Source: Shigella phage CWP003. From it: a stretch of DNA of 64,000 nucleotides. Each line of letters begins with the position of its first letter. Within the stretch, counting starts at the first letter, position 1. The translations under genes and the position numbers were made by a program. The notes under the pieces were generated by a model. That model had not been told where the DNA came from and did not search any database. It was given only the letters and a program-made list of their open reading frames with translations. The DNA is taken from sequence record OL856099. One strand, 5' to 3'. Below, piece after piece: positions 3,574 through 48,787 of the stretch.

Positions 3574-3602
3574 TTGCTTACAAACACATGAATATTTATA
3601 AT
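3574..3602 (+). promoter_or_regulatory. Sigma70-like promoter upstream of portal (TTGCTT, 17 nt spacer, TATAAT)
   Basis: Read from sequence in the divergent intergenic region 3479-3640. Confidence 0.4.
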
Positions 3603-3607
3603 ATAGA

Positions 3608-6016
3608 TTGATTCCCTTTCACTGTCAGGTGGCGTTAACAATGAAAATTCTTGGCATAAAACTCTGGGAGAAGACGCAACCAGAAGCCGAACCAGCGGAG
3701 ATGCCGCCAGGCGACCCATTGGCACCGTTTGAACGCCTTGAAAGGCGCGGCAGCGGTCAACGCTGGGAAAAGACTGAAAGCAATCGACCGACCTTTAAAA
3801 CGGTTGATGACTTCCCTTTATATGAGCCTGATATTAATGGCGATGGTGTTGCAATCATAAAAGGTCGTTCAGTCGATTCCGCAACAGTATCCAAAAAGGT
3901 TATGGATAATGCCTTAAAGAACATCAGTTCAGAAGGGCAAGTAAACCCATACACAGTACCTATTCAACTTCAAAACTGGTATTTGTCACAGTCATTCATC
4001 GGCTATCAAGCTTGTGCCATCATCGCACAGCATTGGCTGGTGAACAAGGCGTGTTCCATGGTAGGCCGCGATGCGGTCCGTAAAGGTTGGGAAGTAAAAT
4101 CCAGTTCTGAGTCAGAATTGTCAGTACAGGCAAGCGAACGCCTAAAGCAAATTGATAAAGAATTTAATATCAAAGAGCACTTAGTTGAAGCCGAACGATT
4201 CAAAAATATTTTTGGTATCCGCGTCATCATATTTGATGTGCGTAGCGATGACCCAGAATATTACAGCAAGCCTTTTAACATTGATGGCGTGACAAAGGGG
4301 TCTTATAAGGGAATCATTCAGGTTGACCCTTATTGGATGATGCCGTTTCTGACGTCTGAAAACACAGCAGACCCTGCATCACAGCACTTCTATGACCCAG
4401 AATATTGGGTAATCAGCGGACAACGTTATCATCGCAGCCACCTCATAATCTTGCGCAACGATGAGCCAGCTGATATTCTCAAGCCGACTTATATTTACGG
4501 CGGCATTCCTCTGACTCAGCAGATTTATGAACGCATCTATGCCGCTGAACGTACCGCCAACGAAGCGCCATTGCTGGCGATGTCCAAGCGTACAACGACG
4601 CTGCGGACCGACGTTGACAAGGCTATTGCCAATGAGCGGTCTTTTGCAGAACGTCTGATGATGTGGATCAAGTACCGCGACAACTATGCAGTCAAAGTGC
4701 TTGGCCAAAAAGAAGAGATGGACCAGTTTGACATCAACTTGTCAGACTTCGACAGCATCATCATGAACCAGTACCAGCTTGTGGCCGCAATCGCAAAAGT
4801 TCCGTCGACCAAACTGCTTGGGACTTCGCCAAAAGGCTTTAACGCCACTGGTGAATTCGAGATGGTCAGCTATCACGAAGAGTTGGAAACGTGCCAGCAG
4901 CATGACCTGACAAAAATTCTCGACCGCCATTACAAAATCCTTCTCAAATCAGAAGGGGTGAATGTCGATGTTAAGGTTGCATGGGAACCAGTTGGCTCAC
5001 TTACTGCTACTCAACTTGCAGAAATCAATGATAAGCGAGCCAACACTGGCAAAACTCTTATTGATGCTGGCGTCATTTCTCCTGATGAAGAGCGCGACCG
5101 CATCAAAGACGACAAAAACAGCGGCTACAACCGTCTGCCGGAAGACGCAGCAGAAGAAACCCCAGGGATGTCTCCAGAGAATATGGCATTGCTTGGCAAG
5201 TCTGCTGGTGAAGTCCTGCAAGGTAAGGCCGATATTGAACAGGCGAAAGCTGATGTCGTTAAGATGGGCGGCCAGTTCTATAGCGAAACAGGTATTATGC
5301 CAGAGGGTGCCGCGCGTGGTGAGTTGGCGGAAAACCCTGACAAAGCGCCTGTCGAAATCAACATGGACGATACCGATGATGAATCAAGCCATCAGGTTGA
5401 TGTCCTAACGCAGTTGAAAGAAGGGCTGGAGGGTATTGCGGATTACTACCTGAAAGAAGGTCAGGATGTGGATTTTGACCCTCAAAAAGATTCACGGTCG
5501 GTGCAACCGTCTACCCTTCCAAGCGTTAAAGGACACGTCGTCAACTTACGCCACAACGTGGGTAAAATGGACGCAGCATCATTACCTAAGATGAAGTTGC
5601 ACGGAATGATTCTTGGCATTGAGAATCCGCGAAACAGCATTCGTAGAGGAAACAGCCTTGACGGTGAATGGGCCGTGAAGATGCCGCACCACTACGGATT
5701 CATCAAGGGCACCAAGGGCGCAGACGGTGATGAAGTCGACTGTTTTGTGGGTCCAAATCTTAAGTCGCCGAAAGTCTTTATCGTGAACCAAAACGATAAC
5801 TACTCTGGCGAGTTTGATGAACACAAGTGTATGCTTGGATTCGATTCAGCAGAAGAAGCGAAAGAAGCTTATCAAGCATCATTTGGTAACGGTTGGAACG
5901 GATTCGACTCAATCCACGAATTAGATGTGAACTCATTCAAGGAGTGGTTGAAGGGTGATTGCTCTCAAGCATACGGAGCACTCAATAATCCTACTAATTC
6001 ACCGAAGCAAGGTTGA
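3608..6016 (+). CDS. Portal protein
   Basis: About 790-800 aa; position directly after terL and before a Mu F-like gene. Track start is TTG; a likelier start is ATG 3641 (MKILG) with AGGTGG upstream. Confidence 0.7.
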   Translation: MIPFHCQVALTMKILGIKLWEKTQPEAEPAEMPPGDPLAPFERLERRGSGQRWEKTESNRPTFKTVDDFPLYEPDINGDGVAIIKGRSVDSATVSKKVMDNALKNISSEGQVNPYTVPIQLQNWYLSQSFIGYQACAIIAQHWLVNKACSMVGRDAVRKGWEVKSSSESELSVQASERLKQIDKEFNIKEHLVEAERFKNIFGIRVIIFDVRSDDPEYYSKPFNIDGVTKGSYKGIIQVDPYWMMPFLTSENTADPASQHFYDPEYWVISGQRYHRSHLIILRNDEPADILKPTYIYGGIPLTQQIYERIYAAERTANEAPLLAMSKRTTTLRTDVDKAIANERSFAERLMMWIKYRDNYAVKVLGQKEEMDQFDINLSDFDSIIMNQYQLVAAIAKVPSTKLLGTSPKGFNATGEFEMVSYHEELETCQQHDLTKILDRHYKILLKSEGVNVDVKVAWEPVGSLTATQLAEINDKRANTGKTLIDAGVISPDEERDRIKDDKNSGYNRLPEDAAEETPGMSPENMALLGKSAGEVLQGKADIEQAKADVVKMGGQFYSETGIMPEGAARGELAENPDKAPVEINMDDTDDESSHQVDVLTQLKEGLEGIADYYLKEGQDVDFDPQKDSRSVQPSTLPSVKGHVVNLRHNVGKMDAASLPKMKLHGMILGIENPRNSIRRGNSLDGEWAVKMPHHYGFIKGTKGADGDEVDCFVGPNLKSPKVFIVNQNDNYSGEFDEHKCMLGFDSAEEAKEAYQASFGNGWNGFDSIHELDVNSFKEWLKGDCSQAYGALNNPTNSPKQG

Positions 6017-6017
6017 T

Positions 6018-6869
6018 ATGGCTTTTAAAGCTTCGAAAAAACGTGAACGCCGCGCACCCGATAGAGTCGGGCGCGGCAGTCCGATAATCCCATCAAACGC
6101 TATTGCGATGGCCTACCGTCGTGAGATGAAAGGTCTTTGCTATGCGATGATTGATGACTATCAGGCAGGAATTTCAGAGTGGCTTGAAAAGAAGCAGGTG
6201 CAGAAGTTCTTTGCGCAAGACTCTGCTGATTCAACATTCCAAACTCTTATGAAACGTCTGCAGCTGAAATGGGCAAAGGCGTTTGCTCGTGTTGGGTCGA
6301 AGATTGCCGCTGATTTTATCAAGTCGGTTGAAAAGGGGGCTACTTCTGCTACATTCGCCAGCCTTAAGTCCGCAGGCATAGAAGCGCCAAAGGCCACATA
6401 TAACAAATTCGTTGAGAACACTCTTAGAACAAGCGAGACGTTTAACACGACTCTAGTGACTAAGGTCGGCGAGGATATTCACAACAGAGTGTACGAAGCA
6501 GTCATGCTTTCGCTGACTTCGCCCGACCCAGCCCAGCAAGGCACGTCAGGCATTCAGGCGGCGCTGCGAAACGTAAAACACTTCTCTGCAAAGAGAGTCG
6601 ACTTAATCGCTAAAGACCAGACAAGCAAATTGTATTGCGTTCTAAGCGATGAAAGGATGCGCCAGAATGGAGTTGAAGAATTTGAATGGGCGCACTCAGG
6701 AGCAGGAAAGGAGCCGCGAATCTCTCATGAACATGTCGACGGAATGAGATTCAAACTTGATGACAAGCGTCTATGGGAAGTGGGCGGAGAGTTGAAGTTC
6801 AAAAAGGGTGACATCGGTCCTCCTGGATGGGCGATACACTGCAAGTGCAGAAAAATACCAATCATTTGA
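6018..6869 (+). CDS. Head morphogenesis protein (Mu gpF / SPP1 gp7 family)
   Basis: Start taken at ATG 6018 just after the portal stop; C-terminal region (...GPPGWAIHCKCRKIPII) resembles the conserved F-like C-terminus; portal-adjacent position. Confidence 0.7.
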   Translation: MAFKASKKRERRAPDRVGRGSPIIPSNAIAMAYRREMKGLCYAMIDDYQAGISEWLEKKQVQKFFAQDSADSTFQTLMKRLQLKWAKAFARVGSKIAADFIKSVEKGATSATFASLKSAGIEAPKATYNKFVENTLRTSETFNTTLVTKVGEDIHNRVYEAVMLSLTSPDPAQQGTSGIQAALRNVKHFSAKRVDLIAKDQTSKLYCVLSDERMRQNGVEEFEWAHSGAGKEPRISHEHVDGMRFKLDDKRLWEVGGELKFKKGDIGPPGWAIHCKCRKIPII

Positions 6870-8361: not shown

Positions 8362-9780
8362 ATGCGAATGCAAACGGCACGCGAAATTGACAAAAATGGA
8401 TTCTTGACGATTGTGGGTTGTCCCATTTCGTCATTTGGCATTTTTGATTATTCTGCAGGTCAGGTTGGACTTGATGGTGATCCGAATCGCATCGTAAAAG
8501 TTTATCGCCCAGAGTCAGCGGTGAAAGACCCCGAAGCGATAGATTCATTCAAAAATATCCCTTTCATCGACAATCACGAAATGCTTTCTGGATTCGAAGG
8601 TGATGAGGATAACACAGCACCCGAAGAGTATGGCGTTGATGGCGTTCTAACTGGCAATGTTTATTATGACAAGCCATGGATGCGCGGCGACCTTAAAGTT
8701 TTTAGCCGTCGTCTGAAGAAAGCCATCGATTCTGGAAAGGTTGACTTGTCTTTGGGCTATGACTGTGAATTCATCATACAGTCTGGAGAGTTTGACGGGC
8801 AGCCGTATGAAGTGGTACAGACAACTCTTCGCGGCAACCACATTGCTCTCGTGGACGTTGGTCGAGTACCAGGTGCACGGGTGCTGGATGGTCGTTGCTT
8901 TGACCATCTTTGTTTGACGACTGTAACACCATCCAACGAGGATTTAGACATGCCAAAACCGTTAAAAGGTAAAGCGCGTGATAATGCTGTTGAACAGCTG
9001 AAATCACTGATCCCTGCGCTCGAACAATTTCTGAATGAAGAGAGCACCGAAGCTGCTCATCAGGACGAAGTTGAAGTGAAAGCAGAAGAGAAGGATTCAA
9101 CCGAAGAACGTGAAGAAGTGATGGTTGATCCAGAAGTTAAAGCAGAAGCTGAAGAGACTCCAGAAGGTGAAGAGAAGTTTGAAGTTGAATCTGAATCTCA
9201 CGCTGGCGGCGAGCTTCCGCAACTGATCAGCCAAATCGAAGCACTTATTGCAAAACTGAAAGGTGGCGCGGTAGGTGATGAAGAAGAAGTTGAAGCCGAA
9301 GTCAAAGACGAAGAAGTTGAAGTCAAGGCTGAAGATGTATCACCTTGCGACAAAGCTGAAGATGTGGTTAGCGGCCTGCAAAACAGCAACGTAAAGGGGG
9401 CTTCGGTCGAAAAAGATGACAAACCGACAAAAGCGGCGAAAGCGTCGCCAGGTCCAGCAAAAGGGGAACACTCAATGGCATCTGATTCAGCAGTTGCTGC
9501 TTTCTACGCTGATTCTGCTCGTAAGAATAGCCTCTACCAGCGCCTGTCTAAAGTTGTTGGTGCCTTTGATCATGCAACTATGGACTCCAAGTCCGTAGCG
9601 AAATATGGCGCTAAAAAGTTAGGCTTGAAGTGCGTTGATGGTGCTGAGTTTGACGTGGTGGATAATTATCTGCGCGGCGTTGAACACGGTCAAAAACAGC
9701 GTGTAGTCGCAAAACAAAAGGCCGCTGCGGATTCTGCAGCAACTGACGAAGCATTTGAAGCTTGGTTGAAAGGGGAATAA
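8362..9780 (+). CDS. Head scaffolding protein, possibly fused to an N-terminal protease-like domain
   Basis: 472 aa; globular N-terminal domain of about 200 aa followed by a highly acidic Glu/Lys/Ala-rich helical region; position between the F-like gene and the capsid gene. Confidence 0.55.
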   Translation: MRMQTAREIDKNGFLTIVGCPISSFGIFDYSAGQVGLDGDPNRIVKVYRPESAVKDPEAIDSFKNIPFIDNHEMLSGFEGDEDNTAPEEYGVDGVLTGNVYYDKPWMRGDLKVFSRRLKKAIDSGKVDLSLGYDCEFIIQSGEFDGQPYEVVQTTLRGNHIALVDVGRVPGARVLDGRCFDHLCLTTVTPSNEDLDMPKPLKGKARDNAVEQLKSLIPALEQFLNEESTEAAHQDEVEVKAEEKDSTEEREEVMVDPEVKAEAEETPEGEEKFEVESESHAGGELPQLISQIEALIAKLKGGAVGDEEEVEAEVKDEEVEVKAEDVSPCDKAEDVVSGLQNSNVKGASVEKDDKPTKAAKASPGPAKGEHSMASDSAVAAFYADSARKNSLYQRLSKVVGAFDHATMDSKSVAKYGAKKLGLKCVDGAEFDVVDNYLRGVEHGQKQRVVAKQKAAADSAATDEAFEAWLKGE

Positions 9781-14069: not shown

Positions 14070-15608
14070 GTGATCAGTCAATCTCGTTATATTAAAATTG
14101 TATCAGGGGTCGGAGCAGGCGCGGCTGTTGCAGTTCGCAAACTGTCGCTTCGCGTCATGACTTCTAATACAGTTCTGCCGCCAGGCATTGTAGCAGAATT
14201 TTCAACGGCTGATGCTGTTGGATCATATTTCGGTTATTCTTCCGAAGAATATAAGCGCGCAGCATTATATTTTGGATTCATCAGCAAGCAAATTAACTCG
14301 CCTGATTCAATCAGCTTCTCGCGTATTGTTTCAACTGCGATTCCAGCAATGGTCATCGGTGATACTGAGCCTAAAGTGCTTGCTACGTTCCAAGCATTCA
14401 CTGGCGCTATTTTAAGCATCACTTATGATGGCACAGACTACCTGACTGACGCAATTAACCTTTCAGCAGCAACAAGTCTGGCGAATGTGGCTGAACTTCT
14501 GGAAACGGCAATCAATACTAAATTTGCAGCAGAAGGGGGCACGTCGGTGCCTGCACTTGCTGATGCAGAAGTGTATTGGAACGCTAATACTCAGCAGTTC
14601 ACGCTGGAAGCAGCGCCGTCGACCGCTGGCGCAGGCAATCTGTCTATCAACGTCACAGGCCAACCGACCGACCCGTCTCAAGCATTAGGTTGGACCACCA
14701 CTGGCACCGTAACCGTTGCAGGCCAGGGCGTTTCAAGTCCGGTAGAAGCCATCGCGGCATCTGTGGAAATCTCCAACAACTTTGGCTCATTCCTTTTTGC
14801 TGGGGCTGACCGAACTCTGGAAGAAATTACCGCTGTGGCAGCGTGGACTCATTCGCAGAATAATATGTACATGTATTTATTCTCGACTTCGTTCGCTAAT
14901 ATCGGGTCATACTACACCGCTCTGAAAGGGTACTCAGGCGTTGGCATGATGATTCGCGCAACTAACCTTGCAAACGATTACATCGACCAAGCACCTGCTG
15001 AAATCCTCGCGGCGACAAACTATAATACTGTGAATGCGACTCAAAACTACATGTATTATCAGTTTGATACTCGCAACGTGACTGTTTCAACTGACTCTCG
15101 TGCAGACACTGCTGATCAAAACCGTGCTAACTACATCGGTGCAACTCAGCAGGCCGGACAAACCTTGGCATTCTTCCAGCGCGGCGTATTGATGGGCGGG
15201 TCTACCGCAGCAGTTGACATGAATACTTATGCCAACGAGATGTGGCTTAAATCTGCTATCACTTCTCAGCTGTTCAGCATGTTCTTGAATCTTGGTCGCG
15301 TGCCTGCAAACGAAGAAGGTAAAGCGACTGTACAAGCAATGATTCAAGTTGCTGTTGACAATGCGAAGGTTAACGGCACCATCTCTGTTGGCAAGGCGCT
15401 GACTGAGATTCAGAAACAATACATCACGCAAACTTCCGGTGACAGCACTGCTTGGCGGCAGGTTGAAACTATCGGTTACTGGCTGACTGTAGATTTTGAT
15501 ACTGAAACCACTTCCGATGGGCGCACCGAATACTATGCAACATACACGCTAATCTACTCTAAAGATGATGCTGTGCGTCGCGTTGAAGGTCGTGACGTCC
15601 TTATCTAA
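14070..15608 (+). CDS. Putative tail sheath protein
   Basis: 512 aa; GTG start with AAGAGGA RBS; immediately followed by a tube-like gene. Inference from size and order only. Confidence 0.4.
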   Translation: MISQSRYIKIVSGVGAGAAVAVRKLSLRVMTSNTVLPPGIVAEFSTADAVGSYFGYSSEEYKRAALYFGFISKQINSPDSISFSRIVSTAIPAMVIGDTEPKVLATFQAFTGAILSITYDGTDYLTDAINLSAATSLANVAELLETAINTKFAAEGGTSVPALADAEVYWNANTQQFTLEAAPSTAGAGNLSINVTGQPTDPSQALGWTTTGTVTVAGQGVSSPVEAIAASVEISNNFGSFLFAGADRTLEEITAVAAWTHSQNNMYMYLFSTSFANIGSYYTALKGYSGVGMMIRATNLANDYIDQAPAEILAATNYNTVNATQNYMYYQFDTRNVTVSTDSRADTADQNRANYIGATQQAGQTLAFFQRGVLMGGSTAAVDMNTYANEMWLKSAITSQLFSMFLNLGRVPANEEGKATVQAMIQVAVDNAKVNGTISVGKALTEIQKQYITQTSGDSTAWRQVETIGYWLTVDFDTETTSDGRTEYYATYTLIYSKDDAVRRVEGRDVLI

Positions 15609-22667: not shown

Positions 22668-22724
22668 AATATTGCTTATAGACTCCTTATAGATTATAAT
22701 TTGTTGATCAGATATAAGGAGTCT

Positions 22725-29946: not shown

Positions 29947-30170
29947 ACGGCTTCAACTTGGACGGGCGGAGCGGAACTTGTATCAATGTCTGGCAAGTCG
30001 AAGTAATACCCCGCCATACCAATTGCACCCACAATCGCGGCCCGTGCCACCTTGTTGCTAATTGACTCCCCAATAAGCTTTACCAACAGGGATAAGATTT
30101 GAGACGTCAAAGCCTTTTTCAGCCTTTTGTTTTCTTCCAAATCTTTCTGCATAACTACCACCCATGTCAA
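29940..30170 (-). CDS. Small membrane protein, holin-like candidate
   Basis: 76 aa; hydrophobic segment AAIVGAIGMAGYYF; convergent with the endolysin. Confidence 0.3.
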   Translation of the reverse strand: MTWVVVMQKDLEENKRLKKALTSQILSLLVKLIGESISNKVARAAIVGAIGMAGYYFDLPDIDTSSAPPVQVEAVK

Positions 30171-30709
30171 CGCACTTCCTGTGTCTTAACATTACCTGAA
30201 GCATCTCTCAAGGGCAGTGGATAGTAGGCCATTTGGTAGTCTGATACGCCTTCAATGTGATAAAACACGATTACGTCTTTGCTGTTGATGAGCATGTTAA
30301 CGACATCTGATTTATCTTCTGGAGTGAGTATTAGTGCGCCGCCTGTCCTGCTGTCTACTGCAACAGGGTATGTCTTGTCGACAAGGCCGCTGTCCAATGT
30401 ATTATACCTGACAACGATTTCAGGGGCATCAACTTTTGCCATTGACATTCCGAACACAAACGACACGACCTGCCGACCGCGATCATTCATTACGCACATC
30501 TTTTCTTTGTCAAATCTTTCTTTTATTACGTCGTATTTATTCCAGCAAAACTCAAATGACTGCCCATTGTTAAAATATCTTGTCAAAACTTTTGCACTTC
30601 CATTCGGCGGCGTAAACATATTTTCAGCCGATGCAGTCTTGGTGAAGAATATAACTGTCAGCATAGCCATGATGATGATCAAAACAATCTTTAATTTGTT
30701 CGCTTTCAT
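30167..30709 (-). CDS. Secreted or periplasmic protein with N-terminal signal peptide
   Basis: 180 aa; N-terminus MKANKLKIVLIIIMAMLTVIFFTKTASAEN fits a signal peptide with an A-x-A cleavage site. Confidence 0.5.
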   Translation of the reverse strand: MKANKLKIVLIIIMAMLTVIFFTKTASAENMFTPPNGSAKVLTRYFNNGQSFEFCWNKYDVIKERFDKEKMCVMNDRGRQVVSFVFGMSMAKVDAPEIVVRYNTLDSGLVDKTYPVAVDSRTGGALILTPEDKSDVVNMLINSKDVIVFYHIEGVSDYQMAYYPLPLRDASGNVKTQEVR

Positions 30710-31862: not shown

Positions 31863-32452
31863 TCAAACTCCTTATTCATCACTTGTTCCAGCGCATAGGC
31901 ATAAGCCTGATCAGTCGATTTAATAAACGTTCCGTTGTACATCACACCTTTACGGTCCTTGATGTCTTCATAGGCGGCTTGAGCGCAATCAGACAGTCGA
32001 AGTCCATAATCATGCGCTACGCCGGAAAGATAATCGACTGCGGCCATGATAGTGACATCAATATCCATGCTTTGATTTTTAGCAATGGCGTCACCAAGCC
32101 GTCCGAGAGTCTTCGCCAAGCGAAGGATAAAGGAATGAGGGTGAGCGCCTTTGTCAGCGCAACCGCCTCCGTTGATGTCTTCGATTTTTGCACCATTTTG
32201 CGCGGCAAGAATAGTTAACACAACAAGGCAATCACCGATGTCGTCCTTGATTGCGGCTTGCAAATCACAAATGGCCTGCTCTGTATATCCGATTTCAGGG
32301 TCAAAGAACACAAGGTCATGGAGTTGATCCACGTGGTCGGTCAACTCCCCAAACTCGCTAATAAGCTTCGGGTATTGGTCTTTAAGGCCGCAACCTTTGA
32401 TGATGTTACGGTCAGAAGCCCATTGGCGAATGTTTGCATAAATCTGGTTCAT
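31859..32452 (-). CDS. mazG: MazG-like nucleotide pyrophosphohydrolase
   Basis: 197 aa all-helical protein; recalled similarity to phage MazG-family proteins; adjacent to ligase. Confidence 0.6.
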   Translation of the reverse strand: MNQIYANIRQWASDRNIIKGCGLKDQYPKLISEFGELTDHVDQLHDLVFFDPEIGYTEQAICDLQAAIKDDIGDCLVVLTILAAQNGAKIEDINGGGCADKGAHPHSFILRLAKTLGRLGDAIAKNQSMDIDVTIMAAVDYLSGVAHDYGLRLSDCAQAAYEDIKDRKGVMYNGTFIKSTDQAYAYALEQVMNKEFE

Positions 32453-32967
32453 TTATTTTCCTTTGATGCGTTGAATTGGTCGATTTTAATTTTAGCCTGA
32501 TTATAAGTATCAATCAAGCTATTAACTTTCTCTTTTAATCGGTTCGTTTCTGCGGCGAACTGAACAAGAAATCGGACATCCTCTTCTGATAGTCCACAGT
32601 TTCCTTCTGGGATAGAGAGGCGTCCAGTGGTCGCAGAGTAGGGCACACTCCTGAGTAATTCACGGGAACAGCTGAGTTGCTCGCGCAGCTTGATATTCCC
32701 AGACTTGTAACGAGCAATAGTGTCATCAGCAACCAGTTGCGCTTCCTGGCGACCCTTCTCATATGCCGATGCCGATTCAACCTGTAAAGATGCAATTTGC
32801 TCTTCGAGTGCATTTATCTTGTCCTTACGCTCATTAAGCGATGTCAGATATTGATTGTCCTTGGCCAGTGATGCGTTGGTTTGCTGAAGGTCTTCAACGT
32901 ATGATCCAGCGGCGAACGCGCCAACAAGGGCCAGAATCTTCAGTAGCGGTACAATTCTTTCTATCAT
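32449..32967 (-). CDS. i-spanin (Rz-like)
   Basis: 172 aa; N-terminal TM helix (IVPLLKILALVGAFAAGSYV) followed by coiled-coil; fully contains an out-of-frame lipoprotein ORF. Confidence 0.55.
   Translation of the reverse strand: MIERIVPLLKILALVGAFAAGSYVEDLQQTNASLAKDNQYLTSLNERKDKINALEEQIASLQVESASAYEKGRQEAQLVADDTIARYKSGNIKLREQLSCSRELLRSVPYSATTGRLSIPEGNCGLSEEDVRFLVQFAAETNRLKEKVNSLIDTYNQAKIKIDQFNASKENK
32535..32762 (-). CDS. o-spanin (Rz1-like) embedded in the +1 frame of the i-spanin
   Basis: Within track ORF 32535..32813; from internal Met: MRRVARKRNWLLMTLLLVTSLGISSC with a lipobox-like ISSC, then a short proline-containing mature region. Confidence 0.45.
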   Translation of the reverse strand: MRRVARKRNWLLMTLLLVTSLGISSCASNSAVPVNYSGVCPTLRPLDASLSQKETVDYQKRMSDFLFSSPQKRTD

Positions 32968-40259: not shown

Positions 40260-40811
40260 TTATACAGTGTACGGAGTACCGTCTTGATTCAACCGCACGA
40301 TGAACTTAAGGTCGACACCAATGATTTCACGCGTATCAAAGATCACATAGTTGTAACGACGCTGACCAGCAATGTTTGGGTTGGTGTGAGAGTCGGTCAC
40401 AACTTCCTGCGCAACCTGAATGCCTTCTTCTTTAAAGAACTTGCGCCATTCAGCAAGTTCAGCGGCAGTCACGTGCATACCAAGATGGCTAACCTGATTG
40501 TCGTGCGCATCGATGTATTCGATGTTTTCGTGAATCCAGTTGCAACCTTTTGTATAGTCAAGAATTTCAAGCTCAAGAGGCTTACCAGCTCCGCCATCGG
40601 TGCCGTTGCCAGCCTGATAGTTGAAGCGCAAGTCAGCTTCGTTGGTGCAATCGCCGCGCTGACCCTTAAAGACATCAGCTTCAAATACGCGACCAGTAGC
40701 AACAACGTGATCATGGAACCATTCTGTCAGGCCGATTTTAGCCAGGAAATTCTGTGCGCGCTGAGCACCTGGAATTGACAGGGCGATTTGTTCAATTTTA
40801 AAATGTGGCAT
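40260..40811 (-). CDS. Hypothetical protein (possible small-molecule-binding enzyme)
   Basis: 183 aa track ORF at the edge of the enzyme cluster; no confident motif. Confidence 0.4.
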   Translation of the reverse strand: MPHFKIEQIALSIPGAQRAQNFLAKIGLTEWFHDHVVATGRVFEADVFKGQRGDCTNEADLRFNYQAGNGTDGGAGKPLELEILDYTKGCNWIHENIEYIDAHDNQVSHLGMHVTAAELAEWRKFFKEEGIQVAQEVVTDSHTNPNIAGQRRYNYVIFDTREIIGVDLKFIVRLNQDGTPYTV

Positions 40812-40901
40812 TTTGTTTCCTTAATTAAATATTATTGATTAATTACTGTGTTGTCTTCGTCCTGTTTTTCAGGAGCAGCGACAACTTCAAATGTTCTTGA
40901 T

Positions 40902-41585
40902 TTATTTACCAAATGGAATATCAGTACCAGACATAAAGCGCCATGCGCCCGTAATTAAGATATGGCGAATGAAGTCAGCAATTACTTGCGGCTCAGTCTC
41001 CAATCCATTCATCAGCGCCTTTTTCTGGTATTCAGCAGCATACTCAGGAGTCCAGCCGCGAGTCGCGCAAACAGCATCTTCAATCTGTTTGGACATGCCA
41101 GTACCACGTAGCTTGTTAGGACTAATAGAGAATACCGTGATCCCGTATTTAGGCGTAAGCTCGTGAGCCATCTGCTTGCTAATCATGAGCGCAGCAGCCT
41201 TGGAAGCATTATAACACAAGCTGGACGTCATAGGAATATGCGCAGCGTTGGAAACGATGTTGATCACAAAACCTTTGTTGTCAATAAGACTTTTCAGCGC
41301 GGCCTGAGTCGTGTTGACGAAAGAGAAGGCGTTGGTGTGCATAACGCGATTGAACTCTTCGTAGTTAACATCTTCGAACCAGTTGTTGGAGTTGACGCCA
41401 GCGCAGTTGATCAAGCCTTCTACGTCGTATTGAGAGAGAAGCTCTTTCATCTGTTTCGCGTTACGGATGTCATAGCCGTTCTCCAAATCAATACCGACAA
41501 CTTCATGACCGTAAGCGCCAAGGGTGTCAAAAATGGATTTACCAAGACCGGAATTGCAGCCAGTTACAACAATTACTTTTTTCAT
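40902..41585 (-). CDS. Short-chain dehydrogenase/reductase (SDR)
   Basis: 227 aa; cofactor-binding TGCNSGLGKSI (TGxxxGxG) and catalytic YNASKAA (YxxxK). Confidence 0.75.
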   Translation of the reverse strand: MKKVIVVTGCNSGLGKSIFDTLGAYGHEVVGIDLENGYDIRNAKQMKELLSQYDVEGLINCAGVNSNNWFEDVNYEEFNRVMHTNAFSFVNTTQAALKSLIDNKGFVINIVSNAAHIPMTSSLCYNASKAAALMISKQMAHELTPKYGITVFSISPNKLRGTGMSKQIEDAVCATRGWTPEYAAEYQKKALMNGLETEPQVIADFIRHILITGAWRFMSGTDIPFGK

Positions 41586-41650
41586 TTATTTATCCTTTTT
41601 GGACTTCGTTTCGATGAGATAAATATAACTCATCGAAACGCACAAGTAAA

Positions 41651-42523
41651 CTATTTATTGAAATTAATATTATGGGTGTTGACAAGACGTTCACACATGG
41701 CGCTGTAAACACCATCATCGTGTATTGAGTCTTCGTGCTTCAGGCCGCTGATTGCGAAGCGTGTAAGCTTGACAATCTTAAGCTCGAACAGATGCCACAT
41801 GTGGTAGTCTTCCGGCGTTTTCAACGTCACGCCATTAGGGAAAAGCACCTGCATAACCTGACCTACCATCACAGCGTTATCGCCATAGACCGCGTTGCGC
41901 TCACGGAAGGTTGCTGCCATCGCATCAAGAATATCGGCGGCAGTTGCCGGAGATTGTTCAACTTCCACAGCCTTAGTCTCTTCTTGCCCTGTTGCACTTG
42001 GATCAATTGCTAATTGTTGCACCACTTCACCTGCCTTGCAAAGATTAAATGTAAAAGCGATTTTATTTTGAGCAACGGAATTATAATACAATGCTTCATC
42101 TTGCATCCGCGCGAGTACGTCTTGTCGGTCGTCGAATACATTGATGATTCGATAATCGCCGTGCCGCAATGCGTGCGACAGCCATGCAGATTTCATAATA
42201 GTTGATGGACGTTTGTCGCCATAGTCTCTCATCTTGATTGTAAATTCATCAAAAGGGAAAACATTGTCCAGACGTTCAAAAGTCACTTGTCTGTATTTTT
42301 CTGGCCTTGCAGTCCAATATTCAACCGCCTCACCGCGAAGAGAGGCCGACTCTACTGCTGATGCAATGTGAGGATAGAACTGATCATAACCAATACCGCT
42401 GTGATAATCATCATAGTCTGACAACGGACCTGCCACCTTGATGCGGTCTAAGCGCCAACGGTCATCAAACAGCGTTCCGTCAAGGTCGAATACGTTTAAG
42501 ATTTCGCTGTTTTTAATGCTCAT
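41651..42523 (-). CDS. HAD-superfamily phosphatase
   Basis: 290 aa; motif I VFDLDGTLFDD (DxDGT) near the N-terminus. Confidence 0.6.
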   Translation of the reverse strand: MSIKNSEILNVFDLDGTLFDDRWRLDRIKVAGPLSDYDDYHSGIGYDQFYPHIASAVESASLRGEAVEYWTARPEKYRQVTFERLDNVFPFDEFTIKMRDYGDKRPSTIMKSAWLSHALRHGDYRIINVFDDRQDVLARMQDEALYYNSVAQNKIAFTFNLCKAGEVVQQLAIDPSATGQEETKAVEVEQSPATAADILDAMAATFRERNAVYGDNAVMVGQVMQVLFPNGVTLKTPEDYHMWHLFELKIVKLTRFAISGLKHEDSIHDDGVYSAMCERLVNTHNINFNK

Positions 42524-43323
42524 CCTTTTGATACTCCATCTTTAGCAACTGGATTGTTGGTGATTGGCATCGCACTCCAAAACTGGATGCGCAACTCTTC
42601 TTGCTGTGCCGTGGTATCCATCCAATCACGATACCAAGGGCAATGGGCTTTACCGTGACGAGGAAATGCGCACTTACCCATACCAATGCATTGCGGCTGC
42701 AGTAATGGATTCGCCCAAGGGTGCACCTTGAGGACTTCCGCAACCATTGCGCGGAATACTTCTTGATACTCTCCTTGCGTGCGCGTGCACAAGCGGTTTG
42801 ACGCCATCTGCTGCAGCGTGCGCAAGTTGAACTTTGCCATGATATGCGTTTGCATATTAGAAGGCAACACGGCACGTGCATCTTGAATCTCTGCGCCAGC
42901 CGCGCGAAGCTCTTGATACAAAGCGTCGATAGTCGCCATCGCATCATCCCACTTCTCTGCCAGTTCAGCTGCCTTCTCGTCATGGCGAGTCCATCCCTTT
43001 GGATCATCCTCTGGGTAAGTGAATTTAGCAGGACGAATCGCATCAAATGCAGACGACTCCTGAGCGCGGCTGGTGCGTTCTTGATATGCGCCTGTGCGTG
43101 TGCGTACCATCTGATGGGTCATGTTCTTTGATACAGCTGTGATATCAAAGATATAGTCCACAAAGTCAAAAGGCGACTTGATTGTATCAAGCATGTAGCG
43201 CCAATGCTCTTGCTTCTCTGATTCCGTCATCTCAGAGACAGGCTTACCAGTCATGCGCGTGTTCTTTGTTTCCAGCAAAAGGTCAAGTGCATCTTGGGTG
43301 TATCGAATTAATTCAACTTTCAT
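42520..43323 (-). CDS. ThyX-like flavin-dependent thymidylate synthase homolog with divergent signature
   Basis: 267 aa; VRTRTGAYQERTSRAQ aligns to the ThyX signature RHR-x7-S-x-R with His-to-Thr and Ser-to-Thr changes; a second ThyX-like stretch LRTLQQMASNRLCTRTQGEYQEVFRAM. From memory of the family, not a search. Confidence 0.55.
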   Translation of the reverse strand: MKVELIRYTQDALDLLLETKNTRMTGKPVSEMTESEKQEHWRYMLDTIKSPFDFVDYIFDITAVSKNMTHQMVRTRTGAYQERTSRAQESSAFDAIRPAKFTYPEDDPKGWTRHDEKAAELAEKWDDAMATIDALYQELRAAGAEIQDARAVLPSNMQTHIMAKFNLRTLQQMASNRLCTRTQGEYQEVFRAMVAEVLKVHPWANPLLQPQCIGMGKCAFPRHGKAHCPWYRDWMDTTAQQEELRIQFWSAMPITNNPVAKDGVSKG

Positions 43324-43336
43324 TTTAATTGTCCTA

Positions 43337-43783
43337 TTAACGGTAATTCACTAGTTGCTGATCACCAGAGAAGGTGCAATGATAAACGAATTGTGCGTTA
43401 TAAAGCAACTGAAAACTTTTCTTTGGTTCATTATTAGAACTCATTGATGTAAAGATTTCTGCACCAGAACGGTTTTCACCAATCAGATTGATAAAGCCGC
43501 CAGTTGAACGAGGTTGAACGAAAGTGAAACGTTGCATCCACGGAGTCCGGTTGACACCTTTTCCGGTGAATCCTTGAATCTGAATATTCAGACCTTCTTG
43601 CTCATTCACACCGATGTAAGTGGTAATCTTCGCACCAGTCGTTGCTGCGGTCTTACCGTCCATCGCTTCGCAATCGTAAACAGCGATTGAATCGGAAGTA
43701 CGGATGGCGGCTTCAGTCGCTTCCATATACATGGTGCCGAGAATAGCAGTTGCGGCAAGCGCGATTCCAGTGATTCGTTTCAT
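43337..43783 (-). CDS. Secreted protein with signal peptide (function unknown)
   Basis: 148 aa; N-terminus MKRITGIALAATAILGTMYMEA; no enzyme motif recognised. Confidence 0.5.
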   Translation of the reverse strand: MKRITGIALAATAILGTMYMEATEAAIRTSDSIAVYDCEAMDGKTAATTGAKITTYIGVNEQEGLNIQIQGFTGKGVNRTPWMQRFTFVQPRSTGGFINLIGENRSGAEIFTSMSSNNEPKKSFQLLYNAQFVYHCTFSGDQQLVNYR

Positions 43784-43848
43784 TTTCGTTTCCTCTATGA
43801 GTTCTGCTTCAATGATTAAAGTATACGCCCATTGAAGCAGAAAGCAAA

Positions 43849-44844
43849 TTATTTATTAGCAATATAAGCAAATTTTTGATAGTTATTTGCTTTGATGAGT
43901 TTTTCGACTTCAACAAGGTCATGAGCGACGTCATCAAGCAAGATATTGCGCCAGGTCGCGAATCGACCGACACTAAACACGTTTAAATCCATAGTCAGCT
44001 GCAGGAGTAGGGCGTGTCGCAAGTCTTTCGGAATGTCGACAATCTTGCCATATTTCTGGTCGACCTTTTCAACTTCTTCAAGAGCAATGTCACTCCATGA
44101 AAGGCCAAAGGCCGTCAACACTTCGTCGACTTCTGCGCGCAGCTTCATGTCACGGTAACGAGTGATGCCGCCTGCGGCTTCAACTGCAGCTTCACTCACG
44201 CTGACCAAAGGAATTGTTTCAATGATAAGCGTGTCACCAGTAATTGATGCGCGGTAAGTTCTGACGGAGTAGTCAGGGAAGTAAATTGTCTGATACAAAT
44301 CACACTTACGTTTAATCTTAAAGCGGTAAACGCGAATGTTTGCTTTATCAAATGAGAAATCAAGCTTTTGATCAATTCCAGCAAGCTTCATCATGACTGG
44401 CAGCGGCGACGTGTTGATGATTGGCGTCTCGCTATAGCCGCAAAGAGTATCAACCGGAGTATTAAAGAATATGCGGTCACCCAGTTTGTCGACAAGCTGA
44501 TCATAAAAGTCATCAGGCGCAATATAACGCGTTGCAGTCTTAAGCTTCATGATTGAACGGCTGCCAAATTGATTGGTGACCTTCATGGAATACATATTGG
44601 CAAGGTTGATTGGGCAATGGTCGTGATAGTAGTTGCCGCGAAAATACACAGCCTTGTCAACTGTCACGGCCTTAAAAGGGATTCCGGTAATACGGCTTAC
44701 TTCTTCGCCGCGAAAGCGTAGCAGCGCCTTGTGCTGTTGCGCTCGTTCCCCTGCTTCGTACACAATAGAGTTCGGGAAGTGACACGCGGTGATAAGTCCT
44801 GCCAATCCGCCGCCGATAATCATTACAGGTTGTTTCATGTTCAT
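43849..44844 (-). CDS. FAD/NAD(P)-binding Rossmann-fold oxidoreductase
   Basis: 331 aa; N-terminal dinucleotide-binding motif VMIIGGGLAGL (GxGxxG). Confidence 0.6.
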   Translation of the reverse strand: MNMKQPVMIIGGGLAGLITACHFPNSIVYEAGERAQQHKALLRFRGEEVSRITGIPFKAVTVDKAVYFRGNYYHDHCPINLANMYSMKVTNQFGSRSIMKLKTATRYIAPDDFYDQLVDKLGDRIFFNTPVDTLCGYSETPIINTSPLPVMMKLAGIDQKLDFSFDKANIRVYRFKIKRKCDLYQTIYFPDYSVRTYRASITGDTLIIETIPLVSVSEAAVEAAGGITRYRDMKLRAEVDEVLTAFGLSWSDIALEEVEKVDQKYGKIVDIPKDLRHALLLQLTMDLNVFSVGRFATWRNILLDDVAHDLVEVEKLIKANNYQKFAYIANK

Positions 44845-44976: not shown

Positions 44977-45822
44977 TTATTCCGCTTGATCACCGTCTTC
45001 GGCATCTTCGTTGGGTTCAACATCGACAAACTCGATGTGGCCCATCTCTTCCAGCTTGCTCAGGTAGGAGCGAACGGAAGCGCCAAACAGTTGATCTTTA
45101 ACTTTTTCGCCCAGCTCATCGATAGACTGCGCCACGCCAACTTCGCCTTCTTTGATCGCCGCCAGAACGCGTCCACGGGTGGAATGCTCTTGCGGCTGGC
45201 TCAGGCCATTGCCAGTGTAGATGAAGTGAGTAGCTTTTGCACGACGTTGACCGTTTGCCTTTTTAGCGGCCTTACGTTCTGCGATGGCTTTGCGACGTTC
45301 TTCAGCTTCTTTCTTACGCTGTTCTTTCTGTTGTTCTGCAGCTTCTTTCGCCGCAATCTTAGCAGCTTCACGCTCTGCCTTGCGTTTCGCTTTAGCTTCT
45401 TCTTTGGCCTTCTCTTTTTCGGCCTTCGCTGCAGCACGGGCTTGATCACGCTCTGCTTTCTTAGCAGCAGCTTGTTCAGCTTTCAGGCGCTTGGCTTCTT
45501 CTTTAGCCTTTGCCTTTTCGATTTCTTTTGCTGCTTTAGCGGCTTCACGCTCTGCTTTCTTAGCAGCAGCCTTTTCTGCACGCTCTTTAGCTTTCTTAGC
45601 TGCTTCTTCAGCACGCTTCTGAGCCTTCTCATCAGCAGCCTGCTTGCGTTTCAGGGCAGCTTCTTCACGCTTGGCTTGTTTTTCCTGCTCACGCTTCTGG
45701 CGTTTTTCTTCGGCTTCTTTCTTTTTAGCCAGACGTTTTTCTTCAGCCACGCGACGGCGTTCTGCTGCAGCTGCTTGCTTTTCTTCTTTAGATAATACTT
45801 TGATTGCTTCGGCCATATTCAC
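44977..45822 (-). CDS. Lys/Ala/Glu-rich histone H1-like protein with globular C-terminal domain
   Basis: 281 aa; about 180 residues of KAAE/KAKE-type repeats, then a globular C-terminal region and an acidic tail (EDAEDGDQAE). Confidence 0.55.
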   Translation of the reverse strand: MNMAEAIKVLSKEEKQAAAAERRRVAEEKRLAKKKEAEEKRQKREQEKQAKREEAALKRKQAADEKAQKRAEEAAKKAKERAEKAAAKKAEREAAKAAKEIEKAKAKEEAKRLKAEQAAAKKAERDQARAAAKAEKEKAKEEAKAKRKAEREAAKIAAKEAAEQQKEQRKKEAEERRKAIAERKAAKKANGQRRAKATHFIYTGNGLSQPQEHSTRGRVLAAIKEGEVGVAQSIDELGEKVKDQLFGASVRSYLSKLEEMGHIEFVDVEPNEDAEDGDQAE

Positions 45823-47524: not shown

Positions 47525-47553
47525 AGTATAATTGCAGATATAGTATAAAGCAA
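47525..47553 (-). promoter_or_regulatory. Leftward sigma70-like promoter (TTGCTT, 17 nt spacer, TATACT on the minus strand)
   Basis: Read from the reverse complement of the divergent intergenic region. Confidence 0.4.
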
Positions 47554-48729: not shown

Positions 48730-48787
48730 TTTGCTTTTATTTTTCTAGCAACTATAATCATTTTATGAACTGAAGCAGAGGTGATTT

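Follow-up and report, generated by a model that had tools for sequence, protein, structure and literature searches.

A predicted periplasmic beta-barrel protein encoded in a variable gene slot beside thyX of Shigella phage CWP003

What is a protein that looks secreted doing among the replication and metabolic genes of a phage? The question is raised by a short open reading frame (ORF) in a 64,000-nucleotide (nt) stretch of DNA from Shigella phage CWP003 (sequence record OL856099; the whole stretch is termed the window). The ORF, referred to here as gp066, lies between genes for a ThyX homologue and a putative flavoenzyme, and its counterpart in Escherichia phage vB_EcoM_WFH (NC_048194), HOV51_gp066, is labelled 'hypothetical protein'. 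An initial annotation, made from the sequence, had proposed a secreted product and two possible roles: a moron acting in host interaction or exclusion, or a periplasmic component tied to the neighboring enzymes. The explanation that best accommodates the data as a whole, put forward here tentatively, is an exported accessory barrel with an envelope or exclusion role.

The gene and its product were delimited in the window as follows.

43337..43783, minus strand: gp066 coding sequence from the ORF list, 148 codons, ATG start, TAA stop at 43337-43339.
43791..43795, minus strand: Shine-Dalgarno sequence GAGGA, read from the sequence, with 7-nt spacing to the gp066 ATG.
43709..43783, minus strand: predicted Sec signal peptide, codons 1-25 (MKR, then ITGIALAATAILGTM, then YMEATEA), with a putative cut after Ala25 (TEA/A, the slash marking the cut), from hydropathy and the -3/-1 rule.
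43340..43708, minus strand: mature domain, residues 26-148, 123 amino acids (aa), 13.6 kDa, pI 8.0, predicted to form an eight-stranded beta-barrel with one short helix.

The ORF at 43337-43783 and its 148-aa product were exactly as initially annotated, and the minus strand can now be added. The ~ 4-kb stretch around gp066 is 99.9% identical to phage vB_EcoM_WFH, a Wifcevirus, and at least 90% identical in 28 phage records, every one of which is a Wifcevirus. A tblastn search detected gp066 in all 28 of these records, with 95.9-100% aa identity. Comparison with vB_Eco4M-7 and ECML-117 by the Nei-Gojobori method gave 17-20 synonymous and 3-6 non-synonymous differences, and the resulting ratio of non-synonymous to synonymous rates (dN/dS) of 0.04-0.09 falls inside the range of the surrounding enzymes. 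A strong Shine-Dalgarno sequence is present at the equivalent position of the homologous loci. The GC content of gp066 (44.5%) is typical of the window (46.2 ± 4.3%), and neither strand of 43200-44000 had a match in Rfam. Two antisense ORFs, at 43514-43690 and 43704-43835, were taken as spurious because the selection signal sits in the minus frame. Given the presence in 28 of 28 records, the low dN/dS, and the Shine-Dalgarno site, gp066 is almost certainly a genuine gene under selection.

Relatives of the protein are few. A search of 5.8 billion proteins returned gp066's own cluster only, and an exhaustive HMMER scan of 1.84 billion representatives added a single distant relative (P0002; 35% identity, E 6.6e-5), with P0003 to P0008 following from two iterated profile searches. 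Inspection of the syntenic slot of Pantoea phages Kyle and PA1 brought KYLE_76, KYLE_77, and one PA1 ORF into the family; alignment of the Wifcevirus-type profile with the Kyle-type profile in hhalign gave a probability of 78% (E 1.8e-5). The gp066 family thus comprises nine sequence clusters and is confined to phages, namely Wifcevirus, Kylevirus, and a few metagenomic relatives. No relative was encoded in 185,579 bacterial species representative genomes, and IMG/VR contributed only the known Wifcevirus and Kyle genomes. Searches of gp066 and its homologues against Pfam (E<=10), PHROGs, NCBIfam, and PADLOC gave no significant match, and the family profile run against all PDB chains (E<=10) returned four unrelated chance matches with E ~1. 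Neither Pfam nor PHROGs has a model for the family, none of its members is characterised, and the gene had previously been annotated as hypothetical. A separate observation concerns KYLE_77 (L008, 5966-6412), for which the annotated start is a GTG and a promoter, TTGACG-N17-GATAAT, lies inside the 5' extension. The annotated start is probably wrong; the true start is most likely the downstream ATG (MKRFIIAAA...), which gives a 125-aa signal-peptide protein identical to P0008.

The N terminus of gp066 has all the sequence hallmarks of a cleaved Sec signal peptide, as the initial annotation had suspected, and these are kept in the homologues. The n-region, MKR, has a charge of +2, and eight homologues have a net charge of +1 to +3 ahead of the hydrophobic core. 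The h-region, ITGIALAATAILGTM, is made up of 15 uncharged residues, fewer than a stable transmembrane span needs, with a mean Kyte-Doolittle value of 1.82, and those of the homologues span 11-16 residues with means of 2.0-3.1. The predicted cut is followed by AIR, and the aligned cleavage sites read TEA/A (gp066), VGA/A, VGA/G, ANA/A, ADA/Q, SFA/A (twice), and VHA/E. Alanine at -1 and Ala, Val, Ser, or Thr at -3 were therefore kept throughout the family despite only 17-36% identity to gp066, the -3 and -1 residues being small and neutral and proline being absent from -3 to +1. The eight divergent homologues maintain the layout of the segment, whereas its actual sequence differs from one subfamily to the next; M1, K2, C38, and C136 alone are invariant throughout the family alignment. 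A lipobox ([LVI][ASTVI][GAS]C) at the end of the h-region is not present in gp066, in which the first cysteine is residue 38, and none is conserved in the family, where the h-region cysteine of some homologues is preceded by F or L and is itself not conserved. In both AlphaFold models described below the first 24-29 residues have a predicted local distance difference test score (pLDDT) below 50 and lie outside the fold.

On this sequence comparison, a cleavable Sec signal peptide of the signal peptidase I type is strongly supported. Export of gp066 to the periplasm is predicted with good confidence because the tripartite N terminus, the small-x-Ala site, and the invariant cysteine pair are all kept and residues 1-24 fall outside the fold. 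The opposite reading, in which gp066 is a cytoplasmic or virion protein and its hydrophobic N terminus is not an export signal, draws on the fact that our own signal-peptide heuristic, used descriptively, passed 15 of the 257 ORFs of at least 60 aa, including as false positives the Rossmann N termini of two neighboring genes, gp063 and gp067, so that the export call rests on the comparison of homologues. It is nevertheless extremely improbable: the n/h/c layout and the alanine at -1 persist in the eight divergent homologues while the segment itself drifts, the segment is unstructured in the model, and the orthologues vBEco4M7_81 and PI34_gp79 are not among the 33 and 28 proteins identified by mass spectrometry in preparations of vB_Eco4M-7 and ECML-117, respectively (PMC7048862), although absence from such lists is no proof. 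The idea that the gene encodes a conserved structural component, which would have undermined the initial proposal, was likewise not borne out.

The shape of the mature protein was predicted with AlphaFold2. An earlier model built from three sequences was weak (pLDDT 62.7) and was replaced by one built from nine, which had a mean pLDDT of 74 (~ 82 for the mature part), a predicted template modeling score (pTM) of 0.65, and block means of 82-90 over residues 31-90; four of the five models agreed. The modelled strands cover residues 28-40, 52-59, 65-73, 80-94, 97-103, 109-114, 123-128, and 132-147, with a helix at 43-49. Judged by this model, the fold of the mature protein is probably a compact up-and-down beta-barrel of eight strands. 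Strand 1 of a meander barrel lies next to the last strand and runs antiparallel to it. The model has Cys38 at the end of strand 1 and Cys136 where strand 8 starts, which places the two side by side, so that a disulfide could form; a closing Cys38-Cys136 disulfide, which would be the mark of a periplasmic protein, is plausible.

Foldseek searches with the first model returned lipocalins, NanoLuc/FABP-like proteins, and designed barrels at E values of 0.01-0.1. The fold matches of the gp066 model included Cap15, designed barrels, PliC, and lipocalins, all of them generic with identities no higher than 13%; PliC, PhiA, and BtaiB are examples of periplasmic barrel inhibitors among the matches. A search of viral folds in BFVD found the Wifcevirus orthologue of gp066 alone. 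The lipocalin-like fold suggested in the initial annotation holds as far as the class goes, that of small up-and-down barrels, and no closer relation was found. Membership of the lipocalin/calycin family was not supported at the sequence level: there was no Pfam match at E<=10, and the sole tryptophan, W82, falls in the fourth predicted strand, leaving no N-terminal G-x-W.

Two alternatives turn on what such a barrel might do by virtue of its shape. The first is that a small molecule is held inside the exported barrel, in the manner of lipocalins, avidins, YceI, and Cap15, so that gp066 would sequester or carry a periplasmic metabolite, lipid, or signal in place of binding a protein. The generic fold matches allow this reading, which is decidedly unlikely given the lack of a Pfam lipocalin or avidin match at E<=10 and the low identities, a mature domain of 101-108 aa in several homologues that leaves little cavity, and a rapid divergence (see below) that fits a protein partner better than a fixed small ligand. 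The second is that gp066 is an eight-stranded outer-membrane barrel of the Lom, Ail, or OmpX type inserted by BAM. The strand number agrees, and the dimensions do not: mature domains of 101-123 aa stand against 135-213 residues in the natural outer-membrane protein (OMP) matches, several predicted strands have only 6-8 residues, and the root-mean-square deviation of the model is 3.5-3.7 to OMPs and 2.4-2.8 to soluble barrels. The invariant cysteine pair, the lack of any Ail_Lom or OMP_b-brl Pfam match at E<=10, and the lack of a canonical beta-signal (four of eight sequence types end in K/R after an aromatic residue) also speak against it. Membership of the Ail/Lom/OmpX family was thus rejected by profile, beta-signal, and strand length, and the reading is very improbable.

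The immediate neighbors of gp066 are as follows.

43849..44844, minus strand: gp067, upstream neighbor, 331 aa, putative flavoenzyme with a Rossmann-type N-terminal dinucleotide-binding motif GGGLAG, phrog_4828.
42520..43323, minus strand: gp065, downstream neighbor, ThyX homologue (PF02511, E 2.9e-30), starting 13 nt past the gp066 stop.

The initial annotation had named these neighbors as a ThyX-like and an FAD enzyme. The former is confirmed by the Pfam match. The latter holds in part: the GGGLAG motif and phrog_4828 are in keeping with it, but gp067 had no match to Pfam or to PDB sequences, and phrog_4828 is itself of unassigned role; other depositors have labelled gp067 homologues 'oxidoreductase', 'UDP-galactopyranose mutase', and 'putative flavoenzyme'. 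Terminator-like hairpins at 44949-44929 and 40243-40224 (minus strand) bound a block of six co-directional genes, comprising gp067, gp066, gp065 (ThyX), gp064 (a HAD/PNKP-type phosphatase), gp063 (SDR), and gp062 (weak glyoxalase-like signal). The block is flanked by a Dda-like helicase upstream and by a DEDDh exonuclease and Pol III alpha downstream.

A gp067 homologue was found in 361 phage records, 292 of them from Pseudomonas phages (mostly Pbunavirus) and the remainder from phages of Serratia, Xanthomonas, Rhizobium, Pantoea, Erwinia, Aeromonas, Salmonella, and other hosts. The preserved gene order is helicase, 'TolA-like', oxidoreductase, slot, ThyX, HAD, SDR, glyoxalase-like, exonuclease, and Pol III alpha, with the exception of Pbunavirus phiKTN6, which has no SDR or glyoxalase-like gene there. 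All loci of the gp066 family (the window, L002, L004-L007, Kyle, PA1, L013, L014, and L015) lie between a gp067 homologue and thyX. The family member is the first gene after the promoter, save in L014 and L015, where it is second, behind a 46-aa ORF. The contents of the slot vary as follows.

Empty: Xanthomonas phage Carpasina and Aeromonas phage Gekk3-15.
One non-exported unrelated ORF: 86 aa in Hera and SMP, both phages of Serratia, and 117 aa in the Erwinia phage TropicalSun.
Five small ORFs, unrelated and not exported: Pbunavirus phiKTN6.
One gp066-type gene: Wifcevirus.
One gp066-type gene with one to three small ORFs: metagenomic L002, L013, L014, and L015.
Two tandem gp066-type paralogues: Pantoea phage Kyle.

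Since the module is present without the gp066 family in relatives whose slot is empty or holds unrelated ORFs, the enzymes do not need gp066. The varying slot content, which the initial annotation had suggested surveying in related phages, marks gp066 as very probably an accessory gene, independent of the neighboring enzymes. The proposal that the product is a periplasmic partner of these enzymes (oxidoreductase, ThyX, HAD phosphatase, SDR, and glyoxalase-like) can point to a strict co-location in nine of nine clusters and to the predicted co-transcription with thyX across a 13-nt gap in which a scan found no terminator. It is, however, contradicted by the more than 300 phage genomes that keep the module without the gp066 family, among them members of Pbunavirus, Myosmarvirus, and Carpasinavirus and an Aeromonas phage, and no enzyme of the block has an export signal, barring the gp063 and gp067 Rossmann N termini that the crude heuristic passed. 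Moreover, the flanking proteins of the window share 70-89% identity with those of L002 (48% for the HAD protein), and gp066 only 32%. This second of the two initially suggested roles is accordingly highly improbable. By the same comparison gp066 appears as the fastest-evolving member of the block, and such divergence was read as typical of proteins that bind variable partners.

Some further observations on the slot and the block were made. In Salmonella phage vB_SeEM_UALMA_PCSE1 the same slot, directly upstream of thyX, is occupied by an ORF of 109 aa that is not annotated and starts with TTG (L024, 4584-4913); its N terminus, MARFGFVLLIISFCSCAGQ..., looks like that of a signal-bearing protein or lipoprotein, and no resemblance to the gp066 family is evident. 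Proteins targeted to the envelope may have been recruited to this slot more than once. The thyX gene itself (42520-43323) has ~ 41 non-synonymous differences from its ECML-117 counterpart (L017, 3961-4764) and a dN/dS of 0.19, the flanking genes having 1-14 such differences, which points to recombination or mosaicism of a thyX segment within the genus. The enzyme block (40260-44844, minus strand; loci L008-L011 and L023-L026) is conserved beside replication genes in Wifcevirus, Kylevirus, Myosmarvirus, Carpasinavirus, and others. The BASEL paper describes 'considerable resistance to restriction' in Wifcevirus, in view of which a role of the block in nucleotide or DNA modification deserves consideration; the block possibly has such a role, a question separate from that of gp066.

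The mass spectrometry lists mentioned above include products of the neighboring genes, namely _77 (glyoxalase-like), gp76 (SDR), and _83 and gp81 ('TolA') (PMC7048862). The corresponding genes in the window are gp062 (40260-40811), gp063 (40902-41585), and gp068 (44977-45822), the glyoxalase-like protein being detected with high scores. The 'TolA-like' gp068 is rich in Lys, Ala, and Glu; annotations in Pbunavirus and Myosmarvirus list this protein as structural. The presence of enzyme-like proteins of a replication block in particle preparations is odd.

How gp066 might be expressed was addressed from the 65-nt gap between gp067 and gp066, which contains a promoter-like element overlapped by an inverted repeat. 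The elements, with the further copies of the promoter consensus in the window and the repeats of relatives, are listed below.

43820..43847, minus strand: sigma-70-like promoter TTGCTT-N16-TATACT, -35 at 43842-43847 and -10 at 43820-43825, just past the gp067 stop.
3574-3602, plus strand: promoter consensus copy.
14264-14291, minus strand: promoter consensus copy.
22672-22700, plus strand: promoter consensus copy.
47525-47553, minus strand: promoter consensus copy.
48731-48758, plus strand: promoter consensus copy.
43802..43842, minus strand: perfect 13-nt inverted repeat from the repeat search, arms 43830-43842 and 43802-43814, bracketing the -10 hexamer.
L002, ~1695-1735: inverted repeat with arms AAGGGTTAT/ATAACCCTT.
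L004, ~9045-9085: inverted repeat with arms GTTGGGTTAT/ATAACCCAAC.
L008 (Kyle), ~5975-5990 and ~6432-6447: inverted repeats, GCTCA-AGGA-TGAGC in the Kyle-like phages.

The pattern TTGCTTN{15,17}TATAMT occurs six times in the window, where 0.06 occurrences are expected; a standard sigma-70 scan overlooks it because the -35 element fits at only three of six positions. A promoter-like element was found at the same position in every relative examined (L002, L004, Kyle twice, PA1, L013, L014, phiKTN6, Hera, and Carpasina). It reads TTGACA-N17-GATAAT in PA1 and TTGCTT-N16-TATACT in L002 and L004, it is annotated as a promoter in phiKTN6, and in Kyle each of the tandem paralogues has a separate copy. 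On these sequence signals gp066 is predicted to be the gene of the thyX operon nearest to its promoter. Neither a literature search on Pbunavirus transcriptomics nor the paper on synthetic vB_Eco4M-7 yielded information about gp066. The inverted repeat folds as RNA with -19.3 kcal/mol (z -3.56), and in other lineages an inverted repeat lies over or next to the -10 of the slot promoter with a sequence that differs each time. It could be a candidate operator, or an RNA (processing) hairpin in read-through transcripts.

What, then, might a small exported barrel with these properties do? Among virulent coliphages, the small exported proteins of known role that do not act in lysis serve mainly in superinfection exclusion or receptor blocking. 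Small periplasmic barrels, for their part, recur as stoichiometric inhibitors of cell-wall hydrolases (PliC, MliC, and PhiA), and the T6SS (type VI secretion system) immunity protein BtaiB is a similar barrel. By analogy, gp066 would be transcribed from the sigma-70-like promoter along with the nucleotide-metabolism operon, and its product would be exported and act in the periplasm by stoichiometrically binding or inhibiting a target on the envelope side. The infected cell would in this way be shielded from secondary attack, whether by superinfection exclusion or against lysis from without. In a concrete version, gp066 would act on sibling phages that arrive later, by blocking the murein transglycosylase carried in their virions or some other component of entry. 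There are precedents: the early protein Spackle of T4 works in the periplasm, where it inhibits the tail lysozyme gp5 (PMC7677548), and Llp of T5 blocks FhuA from the periplasmic side (PMC9586334). A plausible target is a murein transglycosylase of 79 kDa (vBEco4M7_57), which mass spectrometry found in the same Wifcevirus preparations as above (PMC7048862). That gp066 is a periplasmic binder or inhibitor protecting the infected cell by superinfection exclusion or entry blocking is the most likely of the functions considered, if still doubtful. A bolder proposal is unlikely as it stands: that the family are new phage-borne periplasmic barrel inhibitors that have arrived by convergence at the architecture of PliC/MliC, with a disulfide joining the N- and C-terminal ends, and neutralize an incoming tail murein-degrading enzyme or another envelope-crossing component, providing Spackle-like exclusion on an unrelated fold under a promoter that has its -10 within a perfect palindrome.

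Two other envelope functions would make use of the same exported protein. One is counter-defence: some enzyme of the host's periplasm or outer membrane, for instance a nuclease, a protease, or one of O-antigen assembly, would hold back infection or trap the progeny unless inhibited by gp066. The predicted export, the restriction of the family to relatives infecting Escherichia and Pantoea, the O-antigen dependence of Wifcevirus phages (BASEL paper), and the barrel-shaped periplasmic inhibitors PliC, PhiA, and BtaiB among the fold matches would all suit such a function, but no specific target is indicated and there is no homology to a known inhibitor, and we regard it as quite unlikely. The other is lysis control, with gp066 acting as a periplasmic modulator of holin, endolysin, or spanin, or as a superinfection sensor like the periplasmic domain of the T4 RI antiholin. 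Here the small size and predicted export of gp066 and the very rapid lysis by Wifcevirus (BASEL paper) have to be set against its place in a replication/nucleotide-metabolism operon, the absence of the family from most relatives, and a distance of more than 10 kb from the strongest membrane-anchor-like ORFs of the window, which makes lysis control improbable. Those ORFs, at 30167-30709 and 32449-32967 (both minus strand), have strongly hydrophobic, signal-anchor-like N termini (MKANKLKIVLIIIMAMLTVIFF... and MIERIVPLLKILALVGAFAAGSYV..., respectively) and may encode lysis or envelope proteins of the phage.

Several points weigh against the envelope-exclusion reading of gp066. No homology or experiment ties the family to a function, and there is no sequence relation to Spackle, Llp, or other PDB chains by profile search, or to MliC/PliC (Pfam at E<=10 and the profile comparison given below). 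Signal-peptide cleavage and the disulfide are predictions from the sequence, and a heuristic that passes Rossmann N termini is not equal to a trained predictor. Confidence in the structural model is only moderate, and as fold matches the inhibitors are equalled or outscored by the Cap15 cytoplasmic ligand-binding barrels and by membrane barrels. KYLE_77 is weakly tied to the family (hhalign probability 16.5%), and the promoter motif precedes structural-looking genes as well as replication-type genes. Finally, gp066 is nearly invariant inside Wifcevirus, unlike a protein in an ongoing within-genus arms race.

Wifcevirus phages, now included in the BASEL reference collection, are candidate agents for the biocontrol of E. 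coli O157 and for its detection; most of their genes have no assigned function. An in vitro assembly system has been published for one of them, vB_Eco4M-7 (PMC11074155). For one conserved 'hypothetical protein' the present analysis provides a predicted location (the periplasm), a predicted fold class, and an evolutionary status as an accessory, fast-evolving, and slot-tied gene. It also separates gp066 from the conserved oxidoreductase-ThyX-HAD-SDR-glyoxalase module, and makes it a testable candidate for superinfection exclusion or envelope protection. Exclusion factors bear on the design of phage cocktails, because an excluded phage is wasted.

The named comparators of the predicted gp066 barrel are the MliC/PliC inhibitors (PF09864; PDB 2f09, 3f6z, 3oe3, and 4mir) and Brucella PhiA. 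The RSGAEIF sequence of gp066, located at the start of a predicted strand, resembles SGA-x-Y, an invariant motif of MliC/PliC, and the cysteine patterns are alike as well. This lead was tested with a profile built from the PDB sequences 2f09, 3f6z, and 4mir, which was compared with the mature-domain family profile (A8). The hhalign probability was 0.9%, and neither full-length nor mature sequences had a Pfam match at E<=10. In place of the lysozyme-inserting loop, S-x-S-G-A-x-Y, the homologues read QQGAEIT, QRGVRLT, KSAELL, KSKELT, and KSSELT, with no conservation. Membership at the sequence level was rejected on the profile probability and the unconserved motif, and what remains, according to the model, is a resemblance in architecture only. 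As to other barrels, lipocalins are ~ 160 aa long with a C-terminal helix, and Cap15 is cytoplasmic and membrane-anchored. The gp066 model is smaller than the lipocalins and has no C-terminal helix; lipocalins/calycins (E. coli Blc), avidins, the Cap15 effector barrel, and de novo designed barrels have no profile match to gp066 and share no more than 13% identity with it.

The moron proposed at the outset fares unevenly against the known morons of temperate phages (lambda lom and bor). With these gp066 has in common a gene that looks non-essential, a variable position, a promoter just upstream, and a product predicted to belong to the envelope, and the variable slot fits an accessory, host-interaction, or exclusion role. 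On the other hand, gp066 belongs to a lytic myovirus genus, its conserved promoter is that of the thyX operon as a whole, no terminator separates it from thyX, its GC content is not foreign, and its position is stable across genera from Wifcevirus to Kylevirus. Classical moron status was therefore rejected, only the variable-slot aspect fitting, and a function of gp066 in exclusion would be an analogy drawn from other phages.

The closest functional parallels may lie with exclusion proteins. Like the superinfection-exclusion lipoproteins T5 Llp and T1 Cor, gp066 is a small phage protein that would act at the periplasmic side, and the internal disulfide of Llp (PMC9586334) may have its counterpart in Cys38-Cys136. 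Llp, a protein of 61 aa with a lipid at Cys1, has its gene beside that for the receptor-binding protein (PMC9586334), whereas gp066 has no cysteine at the predicted cut, is twice that length, and sits in a replication/nucleotide-metabolism operon. The crystal structure of T4 Spackle (gp61.3) is helical, and gp066 is predicted to be an all-beta barrel without sequence similarity to it; homology was rejected, the four matches of the PDB-chain profile search (E<=10) being unrelated and Spackle being absent among the listed fold matches. What gp066 shares with Spackle is its kind: each is a small exported protein (by prediction for gp066) whose gene lies apart from the structural genes in a virulent myovirus of E. 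coli. Small exported ORFans are common in phage genomes, and nothing in gp066 contradicts that expectation; it is a new family of a known kind.

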